A stretch of 64,000 nucleotides of DNA from Candidatus Binatia bacterium. GTDB lineage: Bacteria > Desulfobacterota > Binatia > UBA9968 > JAJDTQ01. Location of the stretch: NCBI GenBank assembly GCA_963666515.2, contig OY762897.2, forward strand, positions 4,352,001 to 4,416,000, in the 5' to 3' direction. Positions 4,047 through 23,441 of the stretch are shown piece after piece. How positions within the stretch are numbered: position 1 is the first letter of the stretch; every line of letters starts with the position of its first letter. The notes below the pieces were generated by a model. The model did not search any database and was not told where the DNA came from. It worked only from the letters and a program-made list of their open reading frames with translations. The position numbers and the translations under genes are program-made.

Positions 4047-5048
4047 ATGGGAACCTATCTGCTTCGCCGCCTGATCGGCACCATTCCGGTCATGGTGCTG
4101 ATCAGCATGCTCGTCTTCCTGTTGATCCAGTTGGCGCCGGGCGACCCGACGCTGATGCTGCTGGGCGAGGACAGCACCCAGGAGGACATCGACCAGGCCA
4201 CGAAACGGTGGGGCCTCGACCAGCCCATCTACGTCCAGTACGTCAAGTTTTTCATGTCCGCGGTCCAGGGGGACTTCGGCCGCTCCTTCAAGTACGACGA
4301 GCCGGTGCTGGACGTGATCGTCAACCGGATCCCGGCGACCCTGGAGCTGGCCACCGCCTCGGTCATCATCGCGGTCATCTTTGCCATACCCTTGGGGGTG
4401 TGGGCCGCGGCCAAGCCCAACTCCTGGGTGGACAATACCGGCACCACCTTCGGCCTGTTCGGCATCAGCATGCCCAGCTTCTGGTTCGGCATCATGCTGA
4501 TCCTGCTGTTCGCCGGCATACTCAATATTCTCCCGTCCGCGGGACGGGACACCTACGGCATCTCCGGGGAGCCCATCACCGGCTTCTACATTCTCGACAG
4601 CGCGCTGCAGGGGAACTGGGCCGGGGTGCGCGACGGCGCGGAGCACGTGTTCCTGCCGGCCCTGGCGCTGGGCTCCAACATGCTGGGGATCCTCATGCGC
4701 GTGACCCGGTCGTCGGTGCTGGAGGTCATGCACGAGGAGTACGTGACCACGGCCCGGGCCAAGGGACTGGTGGAACGCAAGGTGCTGTGGCGCCACGTGG
4801 TGAGCAACGCGCTGATCCCGGTCATCACCGTGGTGGGGCTGGAGTTGGGCACGCTGCTGAGCGGCTCGATCATCGTGGAGACGGTCTTCTCGTGGCCCGG
4901 CAGCGGCAGCCTGCTGGTCACCGCCCTCAACGCCCGGGACCATCCGCTGGTGACCGGCCTGGTGCTGGTGTACACGGCGGCCTTCGTCGCCATCAATTTC
5001 CTGATCGACGTGCTCTATGCAATCATCGACCCCAGAATCCGGTATTAG
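4047..5048 (+). CDS. Peptide/nickel ABC transporter permease (DppB/OppB-like)
   Basis: YLLRRL, APGDP, GDFGRS, YVTTARAKGL loop, DPRIRY end. Confidence 0.9.
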   Translation: MGTYLLRRLIGTIPVMVLISMLVFLLIQLAPGDPTLMLLGEDSTQEDIDQATKRWGLDQPIYVQYVKFFMSAVQGDFGRSFKYDEPVLDVIVNRIPATLELATASVIIAVIFAIPLGVWAAAKPNSWVDNTGTTFGLFGISMPSFWFGIMLILLFAGILNILPSAGRDTYGISGEPITGFYILDSALQGNWAGVRDGAEHVFLPALALGSNMLGILMRVTRSSVLEVMHEEYVTTARAKGLVERKVLWRHVVSNALIPVITVVGLELGTLLSGSIIVETVFSWPGSGSLLVTALNARDHPLVTGLVLVYTAAFVAINFLIDVLYAIIDPRIRY

Positions 5049-5943: not shown

Positions 5944-6944
5944 CATCGTCCACGCCACGGCTCGGCATGGTGCTGTACCACGGCATCGACAGCGGCGACG
6001 AGTTGCGGAACTACGCCCGCCTCGCCGAGGAGGCCGGCTTCGATTCCCTGTGGGTGACCGAGCGCTACTTCCACGAGGAGACCTTCTCGCTGCTGGGATT
6101 CCTCGCCGCGGCCACCACGCGCATACGGCTCGGCCTGGGCGTCACCAACCCATACACGCGGAACCCGGCGCTGCTGGGCATGAGCGCGGCGACCCTGGAC
6201 CGGATCTCCGGGGGCCGCTTCCTGCTGGGCCTGGGCCGGAGCGACAAGTGGGTGATCGAGGGCCGCATGGGCATGCCCTACCAGCGGCCGCTGGAGCACA
6301 TGAGGGAAACGGTGGCGCAGCTCAGGCAGCTCCTGGCCGGCGAGCGCGTCAGCGGCGCAGGCGCGTATTGGGACCTGAAGTCCGTGCGCTTGGCGGTCAA
6401 CCCCGCGCAGGAGAACCTGCCCATCTACCTGGCCGCCATCGGCCCCAAGGCGCTGCGGCTGGCGGGTGCAGTGGCCGACGGCGTCCTGCTCAACGCCTAC
6501 GTCCCCGCGAGCTACGTGCGCTACGCGGTCCAGGAGATCGCCGCCGCGGCCCGTGAGGCCGGCCGCGATCCGGCGTCCATCGACATCGCCTGCATGTTGA
6601 TCGTGCGTCTCACCGACGATCCCGCGCGCATGATGCCGGCCCTCAAGGAGCGGATGGTGCGGCTCGTGGCCGAGCCCTTTGTGGGAGAGGTGCTGCTGGA
6701 GCGGGGCGGCTTCGATCCCGGCATCCTGCCGTCGTTGCGCGCCACCGCCGAGAATCAAGGCGAGAAGGCCGCCGTGGGCCTGATCACCGACGCCATGGTG
6801 GAGGCGTTCTACCTGCTGGGTGACGCCTCGGAGTGCCGCCGCCGGATTGCCGAATACCGTGAAGCCGGGGTGGACCATCCGCTGCTGCTGCCCCGGCTGG
6901 AGGACTACGAGCGCGCCGTCGAGGCCCTCGGGCCGCGCCTGTAA
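5940..6944 (+). CDS. LLM-class flavin/F420-dependent oxidoreductase
   Basis: AEEAGFDSLW, ATTRIRLG, ATLDRISGGRFLLGLG, ALRLAGAVADG. Confidence 0.85.
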   Translation: MTSSTPRLGMVLYHGIDSGDELRNYARLAEEAGFDSLWVTERYFHEETFSLLGFLAAATTRIRLGLGVTNPYTRNPALLGMSAATLDRISGGRFLLGLGRSDKWVIEGRMGMPYQRPLEHMRETVAQLRQLLAGERVSGAGAYWDLKSVRLAVNPAQENLPIYLAAIGPKALRLAGAVADGVLLNAYVPASYVRYAVQEIAAAAREAGRDPASIDIACMLIVRLTDDPARMMPALKERMVRLVAEPFVGEVLLERGGFDPGILPSLRATAENQGEKAAVGLITDAMVEAFYLLGDASECRRRIAEYREAGVDHPLLLPRLEDYERAVEALGPRL

Positions 6945-7019
6945 GGGACGGGCCGCCCCGTGCATGGCCCGACAGCGACACAAAACCACCTGTCCAGATG
7001 ATAAGACTTTAACATTCAT

Positions 7020-8330
7020 ATGATAAACACCGACCCTCACGCGCCGCACCCGCGGCCCCGCAACCCGCTCAACGTCCGGTTCTTCTACGGCTGGGTCGTG
7101 GTGGCGACGACCTTCACGGCGTCGCTTCTGGCCGCGGGCATCCGCGCCGCGCCCCAGACCTTCGTGCGCCCGCTGGAAGCGGAGTTCGGCTGGGGGCGCG
7201 GAGCGATAAACGCCGCCGTAAGCATCAACCTGGTGCTCTACGGCGCCATCGGCCCATTCGCCGGGCGCGTCCAGGATCGCCGGGGGCCGCGGGTGGTGAT
7301 GCTCGTGGCGCTGGCGCTGCTGGCGTTGGGGGCGGGGGCCACCGCGTCCATCAACCGCCTGTGGGAGTTCTTGCTGGTGTGGGGGTTGATCGTCGGCACC
7401 GGCGCGGGCGGCATCTCGTCGGTGCTGGCCGCCAGCGTGGCCCATCGCTGGTTCGTGCGCCATCGCGGCGTGGTGCTGGGCCTGTTGAACAGCGCCGGCT
7501 CCACCGGGCAGCTCATCTTCATCCCGGTAGTGCTGGGCATGGTCGTGGCCTGGGGCTGGCGCGTCGCCGCCATGACCCTTTCGAGCCTGGGGGTGGTGGC
7601 CTTCGTGCTGGTGTGGTGGCTCATGCGCAACGATCCGGCCGAGGTCGGGGACGAGGCGCTGGGCGAATCGGAGGCCAATGCCTCCGCGGCGGCGCAGCCG
7701 GGCGGCGTCCCGCCGGTCACCGCCACCACGGTGCGGGACGCGGTCCGGACGCGGACGTTCTGGCTCCTGGCCGGCGGCTACGCCATCTGCGGCGGGACGT
7801 CCAACGGCCTCATCGGCGCCAACATGATCCCGCACGCCCTGGACATCGGCATCAGCCACCAGGTGGCCAGCGTGACCGTGGGGATCATGGCCGGCCTGAA
7901 CTTCGTCGGCACCATGGGGGCCGGGTGGCTCTGCGACCGCATGGACCCGCGCAAGGTGCTGGCCTGGATCTACGCTCTGCGGGCGGTGTCGCTGTTCATC
8001 CTGCCGTCGGTCACCGGCCCCGCCGGCATGTTCGTCTTCGCGGTGATCTACGGTCTGGACTGGTTCGCCACGGTGCCGCCGGTGGTGGCCATCGCCGGCA
8101 ACACCTTCGGCAAGAACTCGGTGGGCAGCATCTACGGCCTGATCTTCCTGGCGCACCAACTGGGCGGCGCCGCCATGGCCCAGGGCAGCGGCATCGCCTA
8201 CGACGTGTTCGGCGACTACGTTCCGTCGTTCCTCACCGGCGCGGTGCTGGCCGTGCTGGCCGCGGGCATGTCGATGGCCATCGCCAAGGACCCGCCACGG
8301 CCGACGTTGTCCGCGCCTCAGCCGGCGTGA
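7020..8330 (+). CDS. MFS transporter
   Basis: About 12 hydrophobic segments; GRVQDRRGPR motif A; YGLDWFATVPP. Confidence 0.9.
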   Translation: MINTDPHAPHPRPRNPLNVRFFYGWVVVATTFTASLLAAGIRAAPQTFVRPLEAEFGWGRGAINAAVSINLVLYGAIGPFAGRVQDRRGPRVVMLVALALLALGAGATASINRLWEFLLVWGLIVGTGAGGISSVLAASVAHRWFVRHRGVVLGLLNSAGSTGQLIFIPVVLGMVVAWGWRVAAMTLSSLGVVAFVLVWWLMRNDPAEVGDEALGESEANASAAAQPGGVPPVTATTVRDAVRTRTFWLLAGGYAICGGTSNGLIGANMIPHALDIGISHQVASVTVGIMAGLNFVGTMGAGWLCDRMDPRKVLAWIYALRAVSLFILPSVTGPAGMFVFAVIYGLDWFATVPPVVAIAGNTFGKNSVGSIYGLIFLAHQLGGAAMAQGSGIAYDVFGDYVPSFLTGAVLAVLAAGMSMAIAKDPPRPTLSAPQPA

Positions 8331-8341
8331 TGGAGAACCCC

Positions 8342-9514
8342 ATGTCTTGTGATCCCGACTACCTCAGCTTTTCCGGTGCCGAGTACCAGCGCCGCAACGC
8401 GGCCGTGCAGGCGCGCATGGACCGCATGGGCCTTGACGCCGTGGTGTTCTACGGCAGCCGCACGGCGCCGGACATCCACTACCTGTGCAACTGGCTCACC
8501 ACCAGCGAGGCGTATTTCATCTACCCGCGCCGGGGAGAGCCCACGCTCTTCGTGCAGCTTTCCAACCACCTGCCCAACGCCAAGCGCATGGCCGTCATCG
8601 ACGACGTGCGCTTCGGCGGCTCCAGCCCCACGGGCTCGGTGGACTCGGTGCCGCGGGTGCTGGAAAACCTGAAGGACCGGGGCCTGGAGAAGGGCTCGGT
8701 GGGCCTGTGCGGCAGCGTTCCCTACCGGCACTACCTGCGGCTCGTGGAGGCGTTGCCCGGGGTGGAGTGGAAGGACTTCAGCGCCCAGATGCGCGATCAG
8801 AGGCAGGTCAAGAGCGCCGAGGAGATCGAGCGCCTGCGCGCGGCCGCGGCCATGAGCGACGACTCGGTGGCGGCTCTGAGGGAGCGGGCGCGCCCCGGCA
8901 TCCCCGAGCACGAGCTGGCCCGGATCGTCGAGGACGTCTACCTGGGCAAGGGCGGCATAAACGGCATCCACTTCATGATCACCACCTCCATGCACGACCC
9001 CAGGGGCGGCGTGCCGCAACAGCACCTGTCCAACCGCGTCCTCCAGAAGGGCGACGTGCTGGTCACCGAGATCAGCACCAACTACGCCGGCTACACCGGG
9101 CAGGTCCTGCGCACCTTCACCATCGGCGAGGAGCCCACCCCCGAATACAAGCGCCTCCACGACGCGGCCATGGAGGCCTTCGACCGCATCGCCGGCGTCA
9201 TCAGGGCGGGCGCCGGAACCGCGGAGGTGCTGGAGGCCGCGGACGTGGTCCACGAACGGGGCTTCACGGTCTACGACGACGTGGTCCACGGCGCCAGCCA
9301 GTTGCCCCCCATCCTGCGGACGTCCAGGACCAGCCGCGGGGCGCCGCCCGACTTCCGCTTCGAGACCGACATGTGCCTGGTGATCCAACCGAACGTGGTC
9401 ACGGAAGACGGCCTGCGCGGCGTCCAGTTCGGCGAGATGATGCGGGTGACCGGCGCCGGGCTGGAGAAGATGCACGACTGCCCGCGAGAGCTTATCGTGT
9501 GCCGCAACGGCTGA
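8342..9514 (+). CDS. M24/creatinase-family (pita-bread fold) hydrolase
   Basis: Creatinase-like N-domain, RQVKSAEEIERLR, ARPGIPEHEL, VLRTFTIG; GGAGA RBS. Alternative start at 8330. Confidence 0.8.
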   Translation: MSCDPDYLSFSGAEYQRRNAAVQARMDRMGLDAVVFYGSRTAPDIHYLCNWLTTSEAYFIYPRRGEPTLFVQLSNHLPNAKRMAVIDDVRFGGSSPTGSVDSVPRVLENLKDRGLEKGSVGLCGSVPYRHYLRLVEALPGVEWKDFSAQMRDQRQVKSAEEIERLRAAAAMSDDSVAALRERARPGIPEHELARIVEDVYLGKGGINGIHFMITTSMHDPRGGVPQQHLSNRVLQKGDVLVTEISTNYAGYTGQVLRTFTIGEEPTPEYKRLHDAAMEAFDRIAGVIRAGAGTAEVLEAADVVHERGFTVYDDVVHGASQLPPILRTSRTSRGAPPDFRFETDMCLVIQPNVVTEDGLRGVQFGEMMRVTGAGLEKMHDCPRELIVCRNG

Positions 9515-9522
9515 CCGTTCGC
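9461..9522 (+). repeat. 62-bp direct repeat, copy 1 (3' end of the M24 gene)
   Basis: 61/62 identical to 10761-10822. Confidence 0.95.
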
Positions 9523-10077
9523 TTAGTGAAACGCTCTCAATGCTTCTGCTTTATCGTCTGCAGCTTGCTTCAAATCACTCAACCAGCGAATCAACCGCTG
9601 GAAACTACCGTCGATCAGATCAATCAAGAGAAAAATCGGATAAAGAACCGTAAATGCCCAAAAAAGCGGCGATCGCACTAGCATATGACGCAATTGGACC
9701 TGGATTGCCTGGGCGTAGATAGCTTGTAGTTGTGTCCTGAGTCCCTCATTGTCGATCTCGTTGATTTCATCGCCAAGGGTCCTTGTCTTCGGCACAGCAC
9801 CCCCATTGGCGATCAACATAGCGATCATGTCACCGAAAAGATTGACGTGTGCCCACCGTATTCGGTTGTTCAACCATTCCCGCAACGCTCGGTAGAGTGG
9901 ATCATCAAAGCTGATATGACCATTCACGGCGAGCATAAACAGCCGGTTTCTGAGTTCAAAATGCCGGTGTCTGGCAACGTCCATACAGAATGTCTGCCAG
10001 GGATGGGCAAAGAACCAGATAAGCACCGCCACGACAAGCAAGAACTCAACGGCATAATAGAATTCGTCAGGTGCCAT
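9523..10077 (-). CDS. Hypothetical membrane protein (lower-GC cassette)
   Basis: 184-aa ORF with N- and C-terminal hydrophobic segments; 2 nt from the upstream ORF. Confidence 0.7.
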   Translation of the reverse strand: MAPDEFYYAVEFLLVVAVLIWFFAHPWQTFCMDVARHRHFELRNRLFMLAVNGHISFDDPLYRALREWLNNRIRWAHVNLFGDMIAMLIANGGAVPKTRTLGDEINEIDNEGLRTQLQAIYAQAIQVQLRHMLVRSPLFWAFTVLYPIFLLIDLIDGSFQRLIRWLSDLKQAADDKAEALRAFH

Positions 10078-10079
10078 AG

Positions 10080-10472
10080 CTATAGGTCCTTTGGGTTAGT
10101 CTGCCCGGTCGGCAATAGGCCGCTTGAGGTACGCTCAGGGTCTATAGACTTCTCCAGCTCTTTTGTATGGCCTTGCATGCTGCTCATATTCTTTCGGCGT
10201 AATATCCGCTCACCGATAGCCCATATCAAGAAGATTACAGTCGTAACCCATGGTAAGCCACGAGCCGACTTCACAAACGAAAGCGATGCCCATATACCTG
10301 TTTCTCTTCCCGCAAGGGCGTCGATCGACAGAAAGGCGCAATACGCAATGGCGACCCACATCACTGCCGAGATGAAGCGGTTGATAGTCCTGAATACCAG
10401 ACTCCAGATGTAAACCTTGTTGGGCTCCAGAGAAGTATCGCCCGCATCGCCTTCGCCGTCATGTTGTGGCAT
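10080..10472 (-). CDS. Hypothetical two-TM membrane protein (lower-GC cassette)
   Basis: 130-aa ORF, two hydrophobic helices, polar tail ...IDPERTSSGLLPTGQTNPKDL. Confidence 0.65.
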   Translation of the reverse strand: MPQHDGEGDAGDTSLEPNKVYIWSLVFRTINRFISAVMWVAIAYCAFLSIDALAGRETGIWASLSFVKSARGLPWVTTVIFLIWAIGERILRRKNMSSMQGHTKELEKSIDPERTSSGLLPTGQTNPKDL

Positions 10473-10705
10473 TGGCTACAACCTTGCGCTTCCAGCGGGT
10501 TCGGCGGGTCGGTGCTTCATGGCGTGTTTCCCTCCCCGTAAGCTTAGCAGGTAGCGCGATAAATTCCCGATTGTCAAGGCTCTGACATTTTTCAAACTGA
10601 GCCACTACCGGGCGAGACGAAAACCCCGCTCCTATATCTATAAATCGGCGGGATAACTCAATCCTAAAGCCCTGCCCTGAATTAAGTCAATGCCCGTAGA
10701 GCCGT

Positions 10706-10822
10706 CTCGGTGGCGGCGCTGAGGGAACGGGCGCGTCCCGGCAGCATCTGTCCAACCGATCTGGAGAAGATGCACGACTGCCCGCGAGAGCTTATCGTGT
10801 GCCGCAACGGTTGACCGTTCGC
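10706..10822 (+). pseudogene. Fragmented remnant of the M24 gene 3' half
   Basis: Three adjacent fragments matching 8863-8900 (35/38), 9020-9036 (16/17) and 9461-9522 (61/62). Confidence 0.85.
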
Positions 10823-10883
10823 AAGCTGTCTGGCCCGCGGTCCAGGCGTTGTCCCGCGCCGGTGGGGTTGCTATGATCGAAGC

Positions 10884-11168
10884 ATGGCCGAGGCTATCGC
10901 TTTCGACAGTCATCGCTTCGTCAAGCGCCTGACCGAGAGCGGCTTCACCGAGAAGCAGGCTGAGACCCTCGCCGAAGAGCACGTCGCCCTCCTCAACGCC
11001 AACCTCGCCACCAAGGCCGACATAGCCAGGGTCGAAGCCGGTATGGAAGCCCTGCGGCACGAAACCACCGCAGCCATCGAGGCAGTGAAGGCCGAGCTTG
11101 TGAAATGGCTGTTCGGTGCGTTGATCGCCCAGGGCGGCCTGATCGTCGCCCTCGTCAAATTTCTCTAG
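10884..11168 (+). CDS. DUF1640/CCDC90-like coiled-coil protein with C-terminal TM
   Basis: FDSHRFVKRLTESGFTEKQAE, LATKADI, C-terminal LVKWLFGALIAQGGLIVALVKFL. Confidence 0.8.
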   Translation: MAEAIAFDSHRFVKRLTESGFTEKQAETLAEEHVALLNANLATKADIARVEAGMEALRHETTAAIEAVKAELVKWLFGALIAQGGLIVALVKFL

Positions 11169-11204
11169 GCTCGCGCTTATGGCGCCAGCCGACCGTATCC
11201 CCCA

Positions 11205-11254
11205 CCGTTCGTCCTGAGCGTAGCTCCGTGCCAGCGGAGCGAAGTCGAAGGACG
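11205..11254. repeat. REP-like stem-loop
   Basis: CGTCCT...AGGACG outer stem with inner GCTCCG/CGGAGC stem. Confidence 0.5.
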
Positions 11255-11469
11255 CCATTTCATACCTGACCGGCCCAAGAAGTGTTTCAAAGTGAGAATC
11301 GCGTCTCGAAATGAGAAATTATTTCCTGTTACTGCAATTATTTTCCATAACTATTGAGAATATATGAAATAGATCGAGAATTTCTCCATATGGCAGATGC
11401 CGTCCTGTCGCGTTTTGCGACATATGGGGCGAATACGCTCGATTCAGGTCATCAGAAAAAGTCCATTAA

Positions 11470-11482
11470 TATTAAGAGGTTA
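11470..11482 (+). promoter_or_regulatory. Putative IHF site
   Basis: TATTAAGAGGTTA vs consensus WATCAANNNNTTR (1 mismatch), in an AT-rich tract just upstream of a sigma54 box. Confidence 0.45.
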
Positions 11483-11499
11483 TATGATTTGACGCTTGT

Positions 11500-11515
11500 T
11501 GGCACGGTGAGTGCT
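11500..11515 (+). promoter_or_regulatory. Putative sigma54 (-24/-12) promoter of the giant adhesin
   Basis: TGGCACGGTGAGTGCT vs TGGCACG-N4-TTGCW; correct GG-to-GC spacing, 1 mismatch. Confidence 0.65.
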
Positions 11516-11580
11516 CCATAGAAAGCGACGTTGCGTGGCGCTGACCCGCTACGCCGAGTCTGCTGAGAGAGGGCAAGCAC

Positions 11581-14500
11581 ATGACCGATTCCATCCAAGC
11601 GTTGACGACCGTTGCAAGCCGGAAGCGAGCATCCGCTTGCTGCTGCGACCCCGCAACCGCAACCCGGGGGAGCGCCCGCCTCCCGCGATGGGTGCTCGGG
11701 ATGCGTTTCCCGCGCATCGCCGTGGCCCTGTTCGCCGCTCTCGTGGCGATCGGTCTGACGGCAGTCCCTGCTGCGGCGCAGATCACCGTCAACCTGTCCA
11801 CGAGCGTGACGAGTTGGAACGAAGGGGCAGGGGCGACCCAGGTGACGGTGACGGTCAGTTCCGACTACAGCTTTATTGTGCCCATGGTGACGACGGTGTA
11901 CGTGGGCTACAACACCGACGGTGCTACGGAGGGCACCGACTATAACACGGTCAACAGCTTCGCGATCACGATCCCGGCAGACAATAATACCAAGAGCGCC
12001 ACGGGCACGTTCACGCTGACGCCGAAGCAGGACGCTCTGTTCGAGGGGGACGAGACGATCAAGGTCGGTGGCGTGACCAACCAGAGCGACATAAGCGTGA
12101 ACAGCACAAACATCACGCTGACCGACGATGATGTTCGGTTGACGGCGAGCGTGGCGAGCATGAACGAGGGGGACGCCGCGCGTACGGTAACGGTGACGGC
12201 CACTGCGGGCACTGCAACTTCGGCGAAACGGGGGATTGGAATCTACATCGGCGGCAACAACGACAGCGCCACCGAGGGAACCGACTACGCCACCGTAGCC
12301 GAACACACCATCAACATCGAGGCCAACCAGACCACCGGCTCGACGAGCTTCACCCTGACCCCGACCCAGGACAACTCGGCGGAAGGCGACGAGTCGCTCT
12401 CCATCACCGGATGGTTTGCGGGCGGCGGCTCGACGGTTGGAACCTCTATCGCCATCTACGACGACGACTACAGCCTGTCGGTGAACCCGTCGAGTCTGGA
12501 CGAGGATGCGGGGACGCGGCAGGTGACGGTGACGGCCTGCTGTGGTACGGCCGCGGGGGCGCGGAGCGTGCGGGTCAAGGTGGGCCAGAGCGGCGACTCC
12601 TTCAAGGAGGGCACGGACTACGAGACGGTTCGCGACTTCGACATCACGATTGCCGCCAATGCCACAAACGGCACGGGCACTTTCAACCTCGCGCTGCAGG
12701 ACGACGGCGTTTACGAGTTCACAAAAACGATCACGATCGCCGGCACCAGCTCGCACGGATCGGTCACGGGCACGAGCATATCCATCCACGATGACGACGC
12801 CGACCCCGCCGTCAGTCTGGAGTTGGCTGTGACGAGCGCGAGTGAGGCTGGCGGAGCGAAGACGGTGAAGGTGACCGCGTACAACCGCCTGGACACCTAC
12901 GACAGCTCGTGGGAAGTGGACGTGGAAGTGGGCAAGACCGGGGACAGCGCCACCGAGGGCACCGACTACGCGACGGTGGCCGACTTCACCATCAGATCCG
13001 CCAAACCCGGCGATACGTGGGCTTCAACGTCATTCACCCTGACCCCGACCAATGACACCGCAATCGAGGGAACCGAGAGAATCTCGGTGACAGGCACAAC
13101 GCTTATTGGAAACGCCAAAGTTGGAACCGCGTTCCTCAGCCTGACCGACGACGACGCGACTTCCATTGCCCTGTCGGCGAACAAGTCGAGCGTGAGCGAG
13201 GGCGCCTCGGCCACCACCGTGACCGTGACCGCGACCGCGGCCAAGAACCTGTCGGCGGCGGCGGCGGTGACGGTGTACGTGGGCGATTCCGGCACGGCCG
13301 ACTACGGCATCGACTACGCCAAGGTGTCGGACTTCACCATCAATATCGCCAGCGGCAGCAAGACCGGCACCGGCACCTTCACCCTGACGCCAACCGACGA
13401 TTCGGCGGTCGAAGGGAACGAGACCATCGGCATCGGGGGCTCCGTCACCGGCCACTCCCTGACCGGGACCAGCCTGACCCTGAGCGACAACGACACCCAT
13501 GCGATTACGCTGTCGGCGAGCCCGACCAGCGTGGCCGAGGACGCCTCCGCCACCTCGGTGACGGTGACGGCCACGGCGGCTTCGGCGATTTCGTCGGCGC
13601 GCACGGTGGCGGTGGCGGTGGGCGGCAGCGGCACGGCCACGTCGGGCACGGACTACGCCGCGGTGTCCAACTTCGACATCACCATCGCGGCCAACGCCAC
13701 CAGCGGCACGGGCACCTTCACCCTAACCCCGACCGACGACTCGTCGGTGGAAGGGGACGAGACCATCGGGATTGCGGGCAGCGGCACGAGCCTGACGGTG
13801 ACCGGCACCAGCCTGACCCTGAGCGAGGACGACACCTACGCGATTACGCTGTCGGCGAGCCCGACCAGCGTGGCCGAGAACGCTTCGGGCACCTCGGTGA
13901 CGGTGACGGCCACGGCGGGTTCGGCGATCTCGTCGGCGCGCACGGTGACGGTGGCGGTGGGCGGCAGCGGCGACGGCGCCACCGAGGGCACGGACTACGC
14001 CACGGTGAACGACTTCACCGTCACCATCGCGGCCAACGCCACGAGCGGCACCGGCACCTTCACCCTGACGCCGACCCAGGACACCTCGGCGGAGGGGGAC
14101 GAGACCGTCGGGATCACGGGCAGCGGCACGTTGATGACCGTGACCGGCACCAGCCTCGCGATCACCGACGACGACGTGCGGACCATCTCGCTCTCGTCCA
14201 ACAAGTCGACCGTGGCCGAAGGCGCCGGGGCGACGACGGTGACCGTGACCGCGACCGCCAACTCGGCAGTGACCGAGTCGACCACGGTGACGGTGTCCGT
14301 GGGCGACAGCGAAGACGGCGCCACCTCGGGCACGGACTACACGGCGGTCGACGACTTCACCGTCACCATCGCCAAGGACGCCACGACCGGCACCGGCACC
14401 TTCACGCTGACCCCCACCGACGACTCCACCTACGAGGCCGAGGAGTCGGTCTCGGTGAGCGGCAGCAGTTCGCCACACACGGTGACCGGCACGAGTCTCG

Positions 14501-17500
14501 CCATCGGCAACAACGACGGCATCGGCATCACGTTGTCGTTGAGTCCCACCAGCGTGGTCGAAGGCGCGGGATCGACCTCGGTGACGGTGACCGCTACCGC
14601 CACGAAGACGGCATTGGCGGCGATCACGCTGGACGTGCAGGTGGGCAAGACCACCGACAGCGCCACGGAGGGCACGGACTACCCGACGGTGAACGACTTC
14701 ACACTGACCATCGCCAAGGGCAGCAAGACCGGCACCGCCACCTTCAAGATCATCCCGAACGCCGACAAGAAGACCTCGGAAAGCAACGAGACGATCTCGG
14801 TGGACGGCACGGGCTCGCCGCACACGGTCACCGGCGCCAGCCTGACGCTGACCAACGCGACGGCCAGCAACCCGATCACCCTGTCGGTGAGTCCGTCGAG
14901 CTTGGGCGAAGCGGCCGGCGAGACCACGGTGACGGTGACCGCGCGCATGCAGACCTCCTTCAAAGGCGCCGGCGACGTGACCGTGACGGTGGGCGGTAGC
15001 GGCAGCGCGAAGTCGGGAACCGACTACGCCGCGGTGTCGGATATCGAGTTGAGCTTCTCCGCCGACAGCCCCACGACGGCGACCGGCACGTTCAAGCTGA
15101 CGCCGACCAACGACTCGCTGGTGGAGAGCAACGAAACGGTGTGGGTGGACGGCTCCTCCGACTACGGGCAGGTGGTGGGCGCCAGCGTGACGATCAACGA
15201 CAACGACGGGGCGGCGGTCACCCTGTCGGCGAACAAGACCAGCGTCAGCGAGGGGGCTTCCGCAACGTCCGTGACGGTGACGGCGACCGCCAGCGCGGCA
15301 AGTTCGAATGCGCGGACGGTGACGGTGGCGGTGGGCCAGAACGGCGACGGCGCCATCGAGGGAACGGACTACTCGGAGGTGTCGAATTTCGCCATCACGA
15401 TCGCGGCCAACAAGACGAGCGGCACGGGCACCTTCACCCTGACGCCCACGCAGGACGACGTGGTCGAAGGCAGCGAGAGCCTGACGATTTCCGGCAGCGG
15501 CTCGCAACTGAACGTCAGCAGCACCAGCATCTCCCTGACCGACGACGACACCGCGCCCGCCGTGAACCTGAGCGTGAGTCCGGCCAGCGTGACCGAAGGG
15601 GCCAGCGATCCCCTGAACCTGGAGGGCGGCGGCAAGACCGTGACGGTGACGGCGGCGTTCTCCCCCGCCAAGACCTACGCCTACGACCGGACCGTGGCGG
15701 TTTCGGTGGGCGGCAGCGGCAGCGCCACCTCGGGCACGGACTACGACGCGGTGTCGAACTTCAACGTCAAGATCAGCGCCGGCCAGAAGAGCGGTACGGC
15801 CACGTTCGACCTGAAGTCGACGGACGACAGCGACTACGAGGGCGACGAGACCATCGGCGTGGCCGGCACGTCCACCGGCCTGACGGTCAATTCGGTCAAC
15901 CTGACGCTGGCCGACAACGACAGCGCCGCGGTGACCGTGAACGACGCCAGCGCGGAAGAAGGCAGCAGCATGACCTTCACGGTAACGTTGGACAAAGCGG
16001 TGCAGGGCGGGCTGAAGGTGACGCCGAGCTATACCAACGTGACCGCTGCGGACGCCGATTACACGGCGAACACGACCGCGCTGACCTTCAGCGGCACGGC
16101 CAACGAGACCCATACCTTCACGGTATCGACCGTTGACGACGAAGTGGTTGAAGACACCGAGACCTTCACGGTGGGGTTGAGCGTTTCCGACGCGCCCTCC
16201 GGCGTGACGTCCACCGACACGGGCACGGGCACGATCAACCGGGTCGCCGGGAGCGGCGGCGACACCGCGGCCGTGACCATCAACGACGCCAGCGCGGAAG
16301 AAGGCAGCAGCATGACCTTCACGGTAACGTTGGACAAAGCGGTGCAGGGCGGGCTGAAGGTGACGCCGAGCTATACCAACGTGACCGCTGCGGACGGCGA
16401 CTACACGGCGAACACGGCCGCGCTGACGTTCACGGGCACGGCCAACGAGACCCGGACCTTCACGGTCTCGACCGTTGACGACGACGTGGTTGAAGACACC
16501 GAGACCTTCACGGTGGGGTTGAGCGTTTCCGACGCTCCCTCGGGCGTGACGTCCACCGACACGGGCACGGGCACGATCAACCGGGTCGCCGGGGGCGGCG
16601 GCGACAGCGCGACCGTGACCATCAACGACGCCAGCGCCGACGAGGGCAGCAGCATGACCTTCACGGTGACGCTGGACAAAGCTGTGCAGGGCGGCCTGAA
16701 GGTGACGCCGAGCTATACCAACGTGACCGCTGCGGACGGCGACTATACGGCGAACACGGCCGCGCTGACTTTCAGCGGCACGGCCAACGAGACCCGGACC
16801 TTCACGGTCTCGACCGTTGACGACGACGTGGTTGAAGACTCCGAGACCTTCACCGTGGGGTTGAGCGTTTCCGACGCTCCCTCGGGCGTGACGTCCACCG
16901 ACACGGGCACGGGCACGATCAACCGGGTCGCCGGGGGCGGCGGCGACAGCGCGACCGTGACCATCAACGACGCCAGCGCCGACGAGGGCAGCAGCATGAC
17001 CTTCACGGTAACGCTGGACAAAGCGGTGCAGGGCGGGCTGAAGGTGACGCCGAGCTATACCAACGTGACCGCTGCGGACGGCGACTATACGGCGAACACG
17101 ACCGCGCTGACCTTCAGCGGCACGGCCAACGAGACCCATACCTTCACGGTATCGACCGTTGACGACGAAGTGGTTGAAGACACCGAGACCTTCACGGTGG
17201 GGTTGAGCGTTTCCGACGCGCCCTCCGGCGTGACGTCCACCGACACGGGCACGGGCACGATCAACCGGGTCGCCGGGAGCGGCGGCGACACCGCGGCCGT
17301 GACCATCAACGACGCCAGCGCGGAAGAAGGCAGCAGCATGACCTTCACGGTAACGTTGGACAAAGCGGTGCAGGGCGGGCTGAAGGTGACGCCGAGCTAT
17401 ACCAACGTGACCGCTGCGGACGGCGACTACACGGCGAACACGGCCGCGCTGACGTTCACGGGCACGGCCAACGAGACCCGGACCTTCACGGTCTCGACCG

Positions 17501-20500
17501 TTGACGACGACGTGGTTGAAGACACCGAGACCTTCACGGTGGGGTTGAGCGTTTCCGACGCTCCCTCGGGCGTGACGTCCACCGACACGGGCACGGGCAC
17601 GATCAACCGGGTCGCCGGGGGCGGCGGCGACAGCGCGACCGTGACCATCAACGACGCCAGCGCCGACGAGGGCAGCAGCATGACCTTCACGGTGACGCTG
17701 GACAAAGCTGTGCAGGGCGGCCTGAAGGTGACGCCGAGCTATACCAACGTGACCGCTGCGGACGGCGACTATACGGCGAACACGGCCGCGCTGACTTTCA
17801 GCGGCACGGCCAACGAGACCCGGACCTTCACGGTCTCGACCGTTGACGACGACATGGTTGAAGACTCCGAGACCTTCACGGTGGGGTTGAGCGTTTCCGA
17901 CGCTCCCTCGGGCGTGACGTCCACCGACACGGGCACGGGCACGATCAACCGGGTCGCCGGGGGCGGCGGCGACAGCGCGACCGTGACCATCAACGACGCC
18001 AGCGCCGACGAGGGCAGCAGCATGACCTTCACGGTGACGCTGGACAAAGCTGTGCAGGGCGGCCTGACGGTGACGCCGAGCTTCACGGACGTGACGACGG
18101 ACAAGAGCACGGACTACACGGAGAACACGGCGGCGCTGACCTTCACCGGCACGGCCAACGAGACTCGGACCTTCACGGTCTCGACCATCGAAGACACGGC
18201 ACTGGAGGGCAACGAGACCTTCACGGTGGGGTTGAGCGTCTCGGGCGCGCCCTCCGGCGTGACGTCCGCCGACACGGGCACGGGGACGATCAACAACGAC
18301 GACGGCACGACGGTGACGCTGAGCGACGCGAACGCGGGCGAAGGCGAGTCCATGACCTTCACGGTGACGCTGTCCAAGGCTGTGCAGGGGGGTCTGACGG
18401 TGACGCCGTCGTACACGGACGTGACGGCGGTGGAGGGCACGGATTACGGCGCGAACACGACGGCGTTGACCTTCACGGGGACGGCGAACGAGAGCAGGAC
18501 GTTCACGGTCTCGACCACGGAGGACACAGTGGTGGAGGGGGACGAGACCTTCACGGTGGGGTTGAGCGTCTCGGGCGCGCCCTCCGGCGTGACGTCCACC
18601 GACACGGGCACGGGGACGATCAAGGACGACGACAGCACGGAGATCACCCTGACCGTGAATCCAGCGAGCGTGGATGAGAACGCCGGGGCGACGGCGGTGA
18701 CGGTGAAGGCTGCCACCGACGGGGACACGTTCAAGACCGCCCGCACGGTGACGGTGAGCGTGGGCGACAGCGCCGACAGCGCGGATTCGGGCACGGACTA
18801 CGCGGCAGTGAGCGATTTCACCATCACGATCACCGCCGGTCAGACCGGCGGGACGGGGACGTTCACGCTGACGCCGACGGACGACACGGAGATCGAGGGT
18901 GACGAGGCGATCACGGTAGCGGGCGCGTCCACCGGCCTGACGGTCAACGGGACCAGCGTGACTCTGGCGGACGACGATTTCGACATTTCGTCGGCGGCGA
19001 CCTTTGCGGACGCCGAGGCGGTGGAGGGGGAGCCCCTGACGTTCACGGTGACGCTGAACAACGGGGTGAAGAACGGGTTCGAGGTGACGCCGGTGATCAC
19101 CGGGGGGACGGCGACGTCGGGGCAGGACTACAAGACGGAGTTGAGTCCGTCGCTGCTGGTGTTCGCGGGCACGGCTGGGGAGCAGCAGACGTTCACGGTC
19201 ACGACCATCGACGACCGGGTGGTGGAGCACGAGGAGACGGTGACGGTGAGCTTCACGGTATCGGACACACGTGTGAGCGGGGTGCCGGATTCGGCGCTGG
19301 GATTGATCGTGGACAACGACGTGGCGAGGCTGAAGATAAGCAACGCTCGTGCGGAGGAGGGGGATTCACTGACGTTCACGATGACGTTGAGCAACACGGT
19401 ATCGGGAGGATTCAAGGCGCGGCCGGTTTTCATGGACGGGACCGCGGTTGAAGGATCGGACTACCAGGGGAACCGACCGACGCTGGAGTTTTCGGGGACG
19501 TCCGGAGAGAGCCGGTCGGTGACGGTTCCGAGCCTTGAGGACGGTGTTGTGGAGCCCGAGGAGTGGTTCAACATAGGGCTTTCGATATCGGGGGCGCCGG
19601 GGGGTTTGCGTGTAGGAGCTGGGGTTGGAGTGATCGAGGACGACGACGAGGCGGTTCTGACGGTATCGGATGCGCGTGGGGAGGAGGGAGAAGGGCTGGT
19701 ATTCACGGTGACGCTGGACAACGAGGTCCAGTCGGGCTTCACGGTGCGGCCGGTTTTCACGGACGGAAGCGCGGAGGAAGGGTCGGACTACCGGGAGAAC
19801 CGTCCGGCGTTGGAGTTTTCGGGGACGGCGGGAGAGAGCCATACGTTCGAGGTGTCGAGCCTTGAGGACGGTGTGGTGGAGTACGACGAGGACTTCACGG
19901 TGGGTCTGGATACGACGGAGGTTCCTGCCGGGGTCAAGGTTGTGAGCGGGGTAGGAGTGATCGAGGACGACGACGAGGCGGTGTTGACGGTTTCGGACGC
20001 GAGCGCGAAGGAGGGGGAAGCGCTGGTATTCACGGTGACGCTGGACAGTGCGGTTCAGTCGGGCTTCACGGTGCGGCCGGTGTTCACGGACGGGAGTGCG
20101 GAGGAAGGGGTGGACTACACGGAGAACCGTCCGGCGCTGGAGTTTTCGGGCGTGGCGGGAGAGAGCCGTACGTTCGAGGTCATGAGCCTTGAGGACGCGG
20201 TGGTGGAGTACAATGAGGAGTTCACGGTGAGTCTGGACCTGACGGAGGGGCCGGGGGGGTTGCAGACGGGGGCGGCGGGGACGGGGACGATCGAGGATGG
20301 GACGGAGACGGTGGTGAGGGTGTCGGACGCACGGGCGGAGGAGGGGGAGGACCTGGTTTTCACGGTGACGCTGGAGAATGCGGTGGTGGGGGGTGTGACG
20401 GTGACGCCGAGCTACGCGGACGGGACGGCGTTGGAGGGGACGGATTACACGGAGAACGTGGCGGCGCTGACGTTTGCGGGGACGGCGGGTGAGAGCCACG

Positions 20501-22458: not shown

Positions 22459-22535
22459 AGAACAGCCTGAATCCTGGCGTCCTCCGCGCCCTCCGAAAGC
22501 ACTGGCGCCGAACTCTCAACCGGTGATACCATGCT

Positions 22536-23441
22536 ATGTTGGTGAGACACAACGTTCGACGCAACAAGGGATACGTGGCCGCCAGCTTGGCGCTCACGCT
22601 ATGGGCGGTGGTAGCACTTTCCCCAGCCGCCGCGGCGGACGACCCGGTAGCGCGGGGCAAGTACCTTGTCCGGGCCGGTCTGTGCGTCGCCTGCCACACC
22701 GATTTCAAGAACAAGGGCGCCGAGCTTGCCGGCGGTTACGCCATCGAGGTGCCCTTCGGCACCATCTACAGCACCAACATCACGCCGGACCCGGAAACCG
22801 GCATCGGCGATTGGAGCGACGAGGAATTTCTCCGGGCCATGCGCGAGGGCGTCGGCCGCCGTGGCCAGCACCTCTTCCCCGCCTTTCCCTACACCTCCTT
22901 CACTCGCATGACCGACGAGGACATCCTGGCCATCAAGGCCTCCCTGTCCACGGTCAAGCCCGTGCACAGGGAGAACCGGGAGCCTGAGCTGACCGTGCCT
23001 TTCAACTGGCGTTTCCTGCTGGCGGGCTGGAAGTGGCGCTATTTCGAGGAAGGCCCGTGGACGCCAGACCCCGGCAAGCCGGCGCAGTGGAACCGGGGCG
23101 CCTATCTCGTCCAGGCGGTCACGCACTGCGCCGAGTGCCACACTCCGCGCGATTGGGCCGGAGGACTGGACCGGGAGCTTCTGATGGCGGGTGCCGCCGA
23201 CGGACCCGAGGGCGAGACCGCCCCCAACATCACCGCGCACCCGAGGACCGGCCTAAGCGACTGGTCCGTGGAGGACATGGTGGAGCTGCTGAAGAGCAGC
23301 TACAAGCCGGACGGCGACAACGTCCAGGGCCTGATGGAGCGCGTCATCATCCACGGCTACGAGCACATGACCGACGAGGACCTCACCGCCATCGCCGTCT
23401 ACCTGCGCTCGCTGCCGCCCATCGACAACCGGATCGATTGA
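22536..23441 (+). CDS. Diheme cytochrome c (dehydrogenase cytochrome-subunit-like)
   Basis: Signal peptide; CVACH and CAECH; NITPDPETGIG, RGAYLV. Confidence 0.9.
   Translation: MLVRHNVRRNKGYVAASLALTLWAVVALSPAAAADDPVARGKYLVRAGLCVACHTDFKNKGAELAGGYAIEVPFGTIYSTNITPDPETGIGDWSDEEFLRAMREGVGRRGQHLFPAFPYTSFTRMTDEDILAIKASLSTVKPVHRENREPELTVPFNWRFLLAGWKWRYFEEGPWTPDPGKPAQWNRGAYLVQAVTHCAECHTPRDWAGGLDRELLMAGAADGPEGETAPNITAHPRTGLSDWSVEDMVELLKSSYKPDGDNVQGLMERVIIHGYEHMTDEDLTAIAVYLRSLPPIDNRID

Follow-up and report, generated by a model that had tools for sequence, protein, structure and literature searches.

How does a gene come to have its 3' end present twice, with unrelated DNA lying between the two copies? 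This question is raised by a gene for an M24-family peptidase in a 64,000-nucleotide (nt) stretch of the genome of a Candidatus Binatia bacterium (contig OY762897.2, positions 4,352,001 to 4,416,000, or G000:C1:4352001-4416000 in our numbering), referred to here as the window. The genome measures 4.67 Mb in two contigs, and the stretch is present in public runs labelled as sponge or marine metagenomes. The intact gene (8330-9514, plus strand) encodes 394 amino acids (aa). Its last 660 nt, termed tail A (8863-9522, plus strand; extending past the stop codon into the first 8 nt of the native 3' flank; CCGTTCGC), are copied in collapsed form as tail B (10706-10822, plus strand), on the far side of a low-GC cargo. 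On balance, we favour reading the locus as a decayed scar, left by an additive integration through one-sided homology that would have joined two haplotypes of closely related strains.

The M24 protein matches the Pfam profile PF00557 (Peptidase_M24) over its full length (E 1e-26, profile positions 1-207 of 208) and carries PF01321 (Creatinase_N) N-terminal to the catalytic domain; orthologues with 80-90% nucleotide identity occur in at least 23 of 24 genomes of the same genus. A repeat finder and alignment resolved tail B into three fragments that keep the order of the gene, with the intervening sequence missing, as the original prediction had stated. Fragment 1 (10706-10743, plus strand) corresponds to 8863-8900 with 3 differences in 38 nt; fragment 2 (10742-10758, plus strand), which has a CA in common with fragment 1, corresponds to 9020-9036 with 1 difference in 17 nt; and fragment 3 (10761-10822, plus strand) corresponds to 9461-9522 with 1 difference in 62 nt and continues beyond the stop codon for 8 nt, which are also alike at the M24 locus of another genome (G007). 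The last of these pairs forms direct repeats, 61/62 identical (98%), that contain the end of the M24 gene and bracket the cargo. Genome-wide, the remnant matches the M24 gene alone (E 4e-8 for fragment 1), and this match is beyond chance. For the 17 nt that separate fragments 1 and 3, the best match (14/17) falls inside the skipped interval, and its score was reached by 3 of 5000 shuffles. The joint at 10705|10706 shows only 5/8 similarity to the sequence ahead of 8863.

The losses from tail B amount to 543 of 660 nt, or 181 codons, and leave fragments 1 and 3 in one frame. They are accounted for by a deletion of 121 nt, with CA microhomology at its joint, and another of 422 nt, with CCG microhomology and, directly after it, AT in place of the gene's GG, which agrees with the earlier proposal that the second copy eroded by deletions. 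The same proposal held that all five differences between the copies are synonymous and that the remnant came from a once-functional allele, and both statements were borne out. All five fall at third codon positions (GCT/GCG, GAG/GAA, CGC/CGT, CAC/CAT and GGC/GGT), a count that holds within soft edges, a 5-nt extension of fragment 1 leftwards or of fragment 3 bringing in mismatches that would be non-synonymous. Five synonymous changes out of five have a probability of 0.0009 under random changes, and of 0.009-0.037 if tail B were an in-situ duplicate with constraint on the working copy only, which points to descent of tail B from an allele that had diverged under purifying selection. Furthermore, tail A keeps its native left flank, tail B has a right flank of its own and non-M24 DNA precedes tail B, all of which supports the favoured explanation; the arrangement of the two tails is the topology of a single-crossover product.

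The DNA between the tails (9523-10705) has a GC content of 0.48-0.55, against approximately 0.69 in the flanks. Related M24 loci were compared in 11 genomes of the genus and on 3 metagenome contigs, and neither low-GC cargo nor an M24 remnant followed the gene in any of these 14 loci (0.9-5 kb of flank). Together, the low GC content and this absence show that the cargo is foreign. The earlier statement that no integrase or transposase lies nearby stands as regards genes; it does not extend to the cargo itself, which from its sequence is a truncated, transposase-less fragment of an IS1-family passenger transposon (9523-10609, minus strand) with a single terminal inverted repeat (10592-10609, minus strand; GGTAGTGGCTCAGTTTGA), the outer edge of the element lying at 10609.

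The assignment to this family relies on full copies in relatives. The 18-nt terminal motif is identical at the three copies of the cargo (in the window, G003 and G013) and was found in 13 of 28 genomes of the genus, where a reversed control pattern gave 0 matches; genus-wide it forms 8 inverted pairs with spacings from 29 nt (0.03 kb) to 6.9 kb. Similarity among the transposon copies begins exactly at this repeat. Complete copies measure 1.7-6.9 kb, are flanked by target duplications of 8 bp (7-8 bp in one case) as read from the flanks, and carry a conserved open reading frame (ORF) of 88-89 aa near one end together with variable passengers (Fic, DUF3037, a helix-turn-helix protein with an M78 peptidase, or a DNA methylase). 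Three complete copies encode at the other end a protein of 272-297 aa that scores 25.6-27.9 bits against DDE_Tnp_IS1 (Pfam cut-off 24.1). The genus family thus shares with IS1-family insertion sequences (IS) that carry passenger genes a terminal inverted repeat, here starting with GGTAGTG, the 8-bp target duplication and a terminally placed transposase matching DDE_Tnp_IS1, and differs in the variability of its passengers and, for the window copy, in having one end only and no transposase.

Alignment of the window copy with the full copies of G013 and G003 covers the terminal repeat, approximately 110 nt of subterminal sequence, a TTGACA box and the start of the conserved small ORF (10500-10520, minus strand), whose first 6-7 codons match the full copies before the frame is broken off. 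The relatives' full copies have both terminal repeats, whereas a single one is left in the window copy. A search with the G013 protein detected no DDE_Tnp_IS1 transposase, either in the window copy or in this genome. Both cargo junctions cut functional units, the transposase and the second end being gone, and the fragment as it now stands therefore did not arrive by transposition; where it meets M24 sequence, the joints on both sides look illegitimate. Between the terminal repeat and tail B lie 96 nt (10610-10705) with one promoter-like site on the minus strand and no match in the 27 other genomes of the genus or elsewhere in this one.

Two passenger genes remain in the fragment. The first (9523-10077, minus strand) encodes 184 aa with two hydrophobic stretches, and its stop codon lies 8 nt from that of the M24 gene; among 5.8 billion proteins it has only 4 related clusters, all unnamed, and searches gave a DUF4400 match below the cut-off in Pfam and nothing in NCBIfam or PADLOC. 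The second (10080-10472, minus strand) encodes 130 aa with at least one hydrophobic stretch and has no family match in these three collections. From their sequences, both proteins are probably membrane-bound. The gene pair also occurs in G003 and G013 with 76-77% nucleotide identity, at other sites, where its neighbours are genes for HipA and for a DUF4143 ATPase and flanking repeats are absent, and no M24 fragments above the level of shuffled sequences accompany it there.

The 18-nt motif had also been considered as a tRNA fragment; ARAGORN found no tRNA in positions 1-30000 of the window, in L016 or in L017, and the motif corresponds to the transposon end. Members of this family of IS1-like transposons lie across the genus at L098 811-3368, L099 751-3206, L100 769-4132, L101 744-2457, L102 742-7626, L103 730-1384, L104 694-1554 and L088 1501-1547; they include derivatives of 655 and 861 nt and, in one case, two ends arranged back to back with 29 nt between them. 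A copy of the terminal repeat with one mismatch lies at 4787-4804 of the small second contig of this genome (G000:C2; L105, 5333 nt), where another stretch shares 66% identity with a portion of the ion-channel cargo described below.

The conserved surroundings of the gene indicate how much was added at this site. In 14/14 related loci a cytochrome c gene starts 35-233 nt after the M24 stop codon, and in the window its counterpart lies at 22536-23441 (plus strand). Given this directness in relatives, approximately 13 kb (9523-22535) has been inserted here. Beyond tail B, the rest of this lineage-specific insert (10823-22535, plus strand) contains a DUF1640-like gene (10884-11168, plus strand) that is multi-copy in the genus, a repeat resembling repetitive extragenic palindromic (REP) sequences (11205-11262) that recurs in many related loci, and a gene for a repeat protein of 3625 aa (11581-22458, plus strand), which makes up most of the insert. 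Neither the cargo nor a DUF1640 gene stands beside M24 in any of the 14 related loci, and in the suggested comparison of relatives for different cargo at the same stop codon, none of these loci carried any. The right flank of tail B is itself lineage-specific, without a second remnant ahead of the cytochrome c gene, and therefore at least two events took place at the M24 stop codon. Such a second remnant had been sought as a test of a serial-insertion model; comparisons of 22380-22540, 10823-10890 and 11169-11320 with the gene gave scores reached by 136-260 of 300 shuffles.

Several further observations concern this flank. A low-GC leader (11200-11500, GC 0.38-0.45) precedes the 3625-aa gene. 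The unit with the DUF1640/CCDC90-like gene of 94 aa (10849-11205) has several copies per genus genome, with 75-93% nucleotide identity, and a second unit in this genome (C1:2811433-2811945) lies just upstream of another giant repeat gene; assembled contigs also include an 'opposite strands' joint between 10849 and 11205. The REP-like repeat occurs, for example, between a major facilitator superfamily gene and the M24 gene in G007, G008 and G009, and many contigs end or branch there.

The suggestion that the genome be scanned for other 3'-end duplications proved fruitful, yielding four more loci. When the genome was compared with itself, 127 pairs of direct repeats at distances of 150-20000 nt were found, 106 of them non-overlapping. 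Thirteen of the 106 were kept because the upstream copy ends at most 60 nt past the stop codon of a long ORF with high GC at third codon positions, and 5 of these 13, M24 included, are by inspection loci in which a gene tail, a cargo and a second tail follow one another. Alongside M24, with its tail of 660 nt collapsed to 117 nt and 5 synonymous differences, these are a UbiD-family gene (G000:C1:3569214-3571539, L020 3214-5539; 536-nt cargo; tail of 374 nt, 99.7% identity, 1 synonymous difference); an ion-channel gene (G000:C1:4622958-4628114, L021; 3.7-kb cargo; tail of 599 nt, 94.5% identity, 28 synonymous and 5 non-synonymous differences); a UbiD paralogue (tail of 259 nt with 4 synonymous, 5 non-synonymous and 2 non-coding differences and 1 indel); and a fifth gene (tail of 83 nt with 4 synonymous, 0 non-synonymous and 1 non-coding difference and 1 indel column). 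Cargo at the loci with 259-nt and 83-nt tails (G000:C1:1228513-1231480 and 1497978-1506153) includes an Rpn/YhgA-like (Transposase_31) gene, and a DDE transposase is also found among the cargos of the tail loci. The ion-channel cargo contains ORFs for a methylase and an HNH protein, DUF4238-like ORFs, an IS1595-type fragment and small ORFs of a putative toxin-antitoxin pair. Inspection of the flanks revealed no motif common to the tail boundaries of the five loci. A sixth candidate, locus e (1032278/1034308), was rejected; its copies differ by 35 synonymous and 26 non-synonymous changes, a Cache-domain ORF enters the second copy, and the two are probably tandem paralogues.

At two of these loci, relatives hold the parts separately. 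The UbiD gene runs straight into the cargo in G043 (94% identity over 1920 nt), where the second cargo ORF is intact (162 aa), the cargo of this genome being cut within that ORF; in G024 and G012, the tail is contiguous with the downstream genes that here follow tail B. This genome has both arrangements, and the two haplotypes joined at its UbiD locus are each present in relatives. The UbiD cargo is capped by a 36-nt IS end fragment, of which the genome has two other copies, at C1:1451459 and C1:2790125; one of these lies at the end of an rve-type transposase ORF. At the ion-channel locus, a single tail in G001 matches both copies of the query and represents an empty site, and parts of the cargo adjoin the tail in G007 and G008; no convincing alignment placed a collapsed tail in the 161-nt interval of G007. 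The ion-channel tails show 17 of their 33 differences within the first ~110 nt.

According to the explanation we favour, an incoming fragment would have matched the resident M24 region on one side only. It would have entered through a single crossover of the circularised fragment, or through a homologous crossover combined with an illegitimate joint at the other end, that is, homology-facilitated illegitimate recombination (HFIR), a process reportedly treated by de Vries and Wackernagel and by Prudhomme et al. At least the last 660 nt of M24 would thereby have been doubled, bracketing non-homologous DNA. In the HFIR version, the crossover would lie upstream of 8863 and the free end would have been joined at 8863; in its mirror version, the anchor would lie downstream and tail B would be the leading end of the incoming fragment. 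One tail would then complete a working gene, the redundant one would shrink through the two microhomology deletions, and the arrangement would be stabilised once an exact repeat of only 50 nt remained, with the transposon fragment and the 96 nt stranded between the tails. The joining mechanism, the order of events and the identity of the incoming tail are parts of the explanation that we infer. Ku, which the genome encodes, could circularise or join linear DNA and may have done so here. A mirror reading, in which tail B arrived with the DUF1640-like and giant genes and was joined to resident cargo, fits equally. Consequently, of the earlier proposal that an incoming 3' half with cargo replaced the gene end, the foreign nature of the DNA between the copies is upheld by its sequence, and the casting of the upstream tail and cargo as the incomers is not.

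Laboratory precedents support the outcome required. In Escherichia coli conjugation with one-sided homology, part of the homologous segment was duplicated in 56 of 60 recombinants; in the 14 clones that were sequenced the duplication measured 109-950 bp, and the authors explained it by recircularisation of the molecule and a single crossover (PMC3240628). In pneumococcus, transformation is on record as a trigger of merodiploidy (PMC3784515).

A number of observations nevertheless weigh against this explanation. Both M24 cargo junctions look illegitimate, and therefore at least one earlier rearrangement has to be assumed in the cargo-bearing haplotype. Tail B precedes 11.7 kb of lineage-specific DNA, not the conserved cytochrome c gene. 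No M24 strain with an empty site, an un-collapsed tail B or the donor haplotype was found, the best loci in a scan of metagenome contigs for strains of the same species having 90-91% protein identity or less. An attempt to polarise the five M24 differences assigned no direction, all five sites varying across the genus (14 orthologues). At the ion-channel locus, no clear donor signal emerged from the 33 sites in five genomes; matches to tail A and tail B numbered 17/13 in G007, 17/10 in G008, 15/16 in G017, 16/17 in G001 and 17/12 in G043, with G017 and G001 being cargo-free there. At the UbiD locus, an IS3-family end fragment lies exactly at the tail-B boundary, which is therefore an insertion or deletion edge and not an integration joint; at first, the duplications may have extended further. 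Finally, at two other loci it is the 5' part of a gene that is duplicated, with cargo enclosed, an outcome that a simple single crossover does not predict. G000:C1:1853646-1856117 (L023) corresponds to the tail duplications but involves the opposite gene end; there, an AAA ATPase gene has its 5' end duplicated over 311 nt with 97.7% identity, and the copies enclose a gene for a protein with AAA-ATPase_like and PDDEXK_9 domains. One of the 8 Rpn/YhgA-like genes of the genome (1330431-1331459) has a copy of most of a glutaredoxin gene on either side.

The alternative that survives best, possible although we consider it improbable, is a partial tandem duplication in situ. A break near the end of M24, repaired by end joining or through a transposon-associated rearrangement, would have doubled the tail and caught a foreign fragment in between; the copies, at first identical, would have acquired their synonymous-only differences when the allele of another strain replaced the working copy by homologous recombination. 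The apparently illegitimate nature of both cargo junctions suits this account, as do the presence of Ku and of 8 Rpn/YhgA-like nuclease genes, the IS ends at or near tail-B boundaries and the 99.7% identity of the UbiD tails. Also in its favour, the M24 gene shows mosaic similarity to relatives, with identity to G008 and G009 of 0.873 in its 5' part against 0.920 in the tail, and a second contig covering window positions 8810-9094 in runs X17 and X19 differs from M24 at 20 of 285 nt, which points to a related strain or species (~7% divergent) in the same samples. The bases of that contig at 8875 and 8893 agree with neither the gene nor the remnant. This account, however, needs an extra step at every diverged locus, including the ion-channel gene, whose tails differ at 33/599 sites, 28 of them synonymous. 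Moreover, the joint of the UbiD gene with its cargo is native in another species (G043), and the cargo was therefore not trapped de novo there.

A site-specific element that carried its own copy of the M24 tail, in the manner of e14 in the E. coli icd gene, and that used a tyrosine or serine recombinase is decidedly unlikely. Its integrase and most of the element would later have been deleted, or the enzyme would have acted in trans, as with the microcin H47 island. The locus shares its topology with icd-e14-icdC, where the gene ends also differ mostly by synonymous changes (PMC13626634), and its cargo is flanked by a 62-nt direct repeat that contains the stop codon; an island that lacks an integrase, has long imperfect repeats and is moved by host functions is on record as well (PMC3191183). 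Against this, the two coding-looking cargo ORFs of at least 60 aa (184 and 130 aa) match no integrase or recombinase family, and the ORF list for 6000-14000 offers no other candidate, the Pfam scan having covered neither the remaining ORFs nor the giant gene. The duplication spans at least 660 nt (259-599 nt at three other loci), and usual attachment sites are far shorter. The cargo is a broken transposon and not an island backbone, none of the 14 related M24 loci has anything at the site, and homologues of the cargo lie elsewhere in G003 and G013. Five genes would also call for five specificities, and their boundaries have no motif in common.

Assembled contigs from public runs bear on whether the arrangement is real. 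Among Logan contigs over 7900-11500, a contig of 1310 nt (9481-10790) that spans both cargo junctions and both deletion joints recurs with 0 differences in runs X16, X17 and X18, and reaches to 10735 in X19; these are four runs of three samples from one study, which may include the source sample and are hence not independent of the assembly. Depth in X16 is even, at 55.6 over the gene, 50 over the cargo and 48 downstream. The contigs end inside the 50-nt exact repeat, so that the integrated form is not separable from an empty site accompanied by a 1.3-kb circle. Among the contigs of the four runs, which do not resolve this repeat, none was listed with a joint that bypasses the cargo. An assembly artefact, in which the second copy came from a chimeric join or a mis-resolved repeat, is hardly credible, for although a metagenome-type assembly with co-occurring related strains and the k-mer ambiguity over the exact repeat would invite one, the junctions and deletion joints are reproduced in X16-X18 of the one study with 0 differences and even depth, and a collapsed copy made of ordered fragments is atypical of assembler errors.

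The proposed one-sided integration between strains is best read beside systems already described. Products of single-crossover (Campbell-type) integration or HFIR likewise have foreign DNA enclosed by duplicates of a portion of the homologous segment, and no dedicated recombinase is needed; the laboratory duplications of 109-950 bp (PMC3240628) match in size range the 83-660 nt here. The difference is that the laboratory crosses used plasmids or polymerase chain reaction products, while the present cases are natural, allelic and at several stages of decay. In e14, and likewise in phage 21, the end of the intact icd gene lies in the inserted DNA, with the displaced 3' fragment, the icdC pseudogene, beyond it, and the two gene ends differ largely by synonymous changes (PMC13626634, where Hill et al. 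1989 is cited); e14 is a prophage with its own site-specific recombination and a short core, whereas at the M24 locus no integrase was found in the cargo ORFs, the duplication is much longer, the cargo is 1.2 kb with a broken transposon and the displaced copy has collapsed. The view of the locus as a distinct gene-tail-anchored route is accordingly not established, one-sided-homology crosses in the laboratory giving the same outcome (PMC3240628) and the topology being known from e14 and icd (PMC13626634).

Displacement of gene ends is also familiar from toxin loci, and Jackson et al. 2009 reportedly deal with orphan arrays and C-terminal displacement. In Rhs, contact-dependent inhibition (CDI) and type VI secretion system (T6SS) effector-immunity loci, incoming modules attach to the 3' region of a conserved gene, older 3' pieces being thereby moved downstream, and HFIR has been proposed as the mechanism for C-terminal displacement in Rhs and T6SS loci (PMC5361080). 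The variable part there is the toxin tip of the gene itself with an immunity gene, whereas here ordinary metabolic or channel genes carry unrelated cargo. The microcin H47 island of E. coli is similar in being small, without an integrase of its own, and bounded by extensive imperfect direct repeats, and differs in that its movement is site-specific and independent of homologous recombination and its repeats are not copies of gene ends under purifying selection (PMC3191183). In the open-access literature we found no natural series of such tail duplications, an absence that is not proof, and nothing pertinent on natural Campbell-type partial duplications at islands. What sets the present loci apart is the natural, allelic and integrase-free duplication of tails at ordinary genes, within one genome and in graded stages of decay.

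The entry of accessory genes is usually ascribed to integrases, transposases or double crossover in flanking core genes. To our knowledge, natural scars of one-sided homology have rarely been documented outside toxin loci, though laboratory crosses yield them readily. The five loci form a series in which deletions progressively trim a merodiploid junction down to the selected genes and a short repeat, from 374 nt at 99.7% identity and 599 nt at 94.5%, through 259 nt with non-synonymous changes and one indel, to 83 nt and to 660 nt reduced to 117 nt. Displaced gene tails with synonymous differences only also serve as a practical marker of recent strain-to-strain transfer in uncultured symbionts. 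A bolder and rather doubtful extension is that gene tails act as recombinase-free attachment sites, where RecA would loop out a cassette enclosed by two copies of a core gene's end, in the form of a circle of tail and cargo that re-enters a related strain by a single crossover in its copy of the gene. Each re-entry would leave an allelic displaced tail, and deletions in that tail would lock the cargo in. If true, this would amount to a general, integrase-free spread of accessory genes among co-resident strains and would account for the five loci found here.

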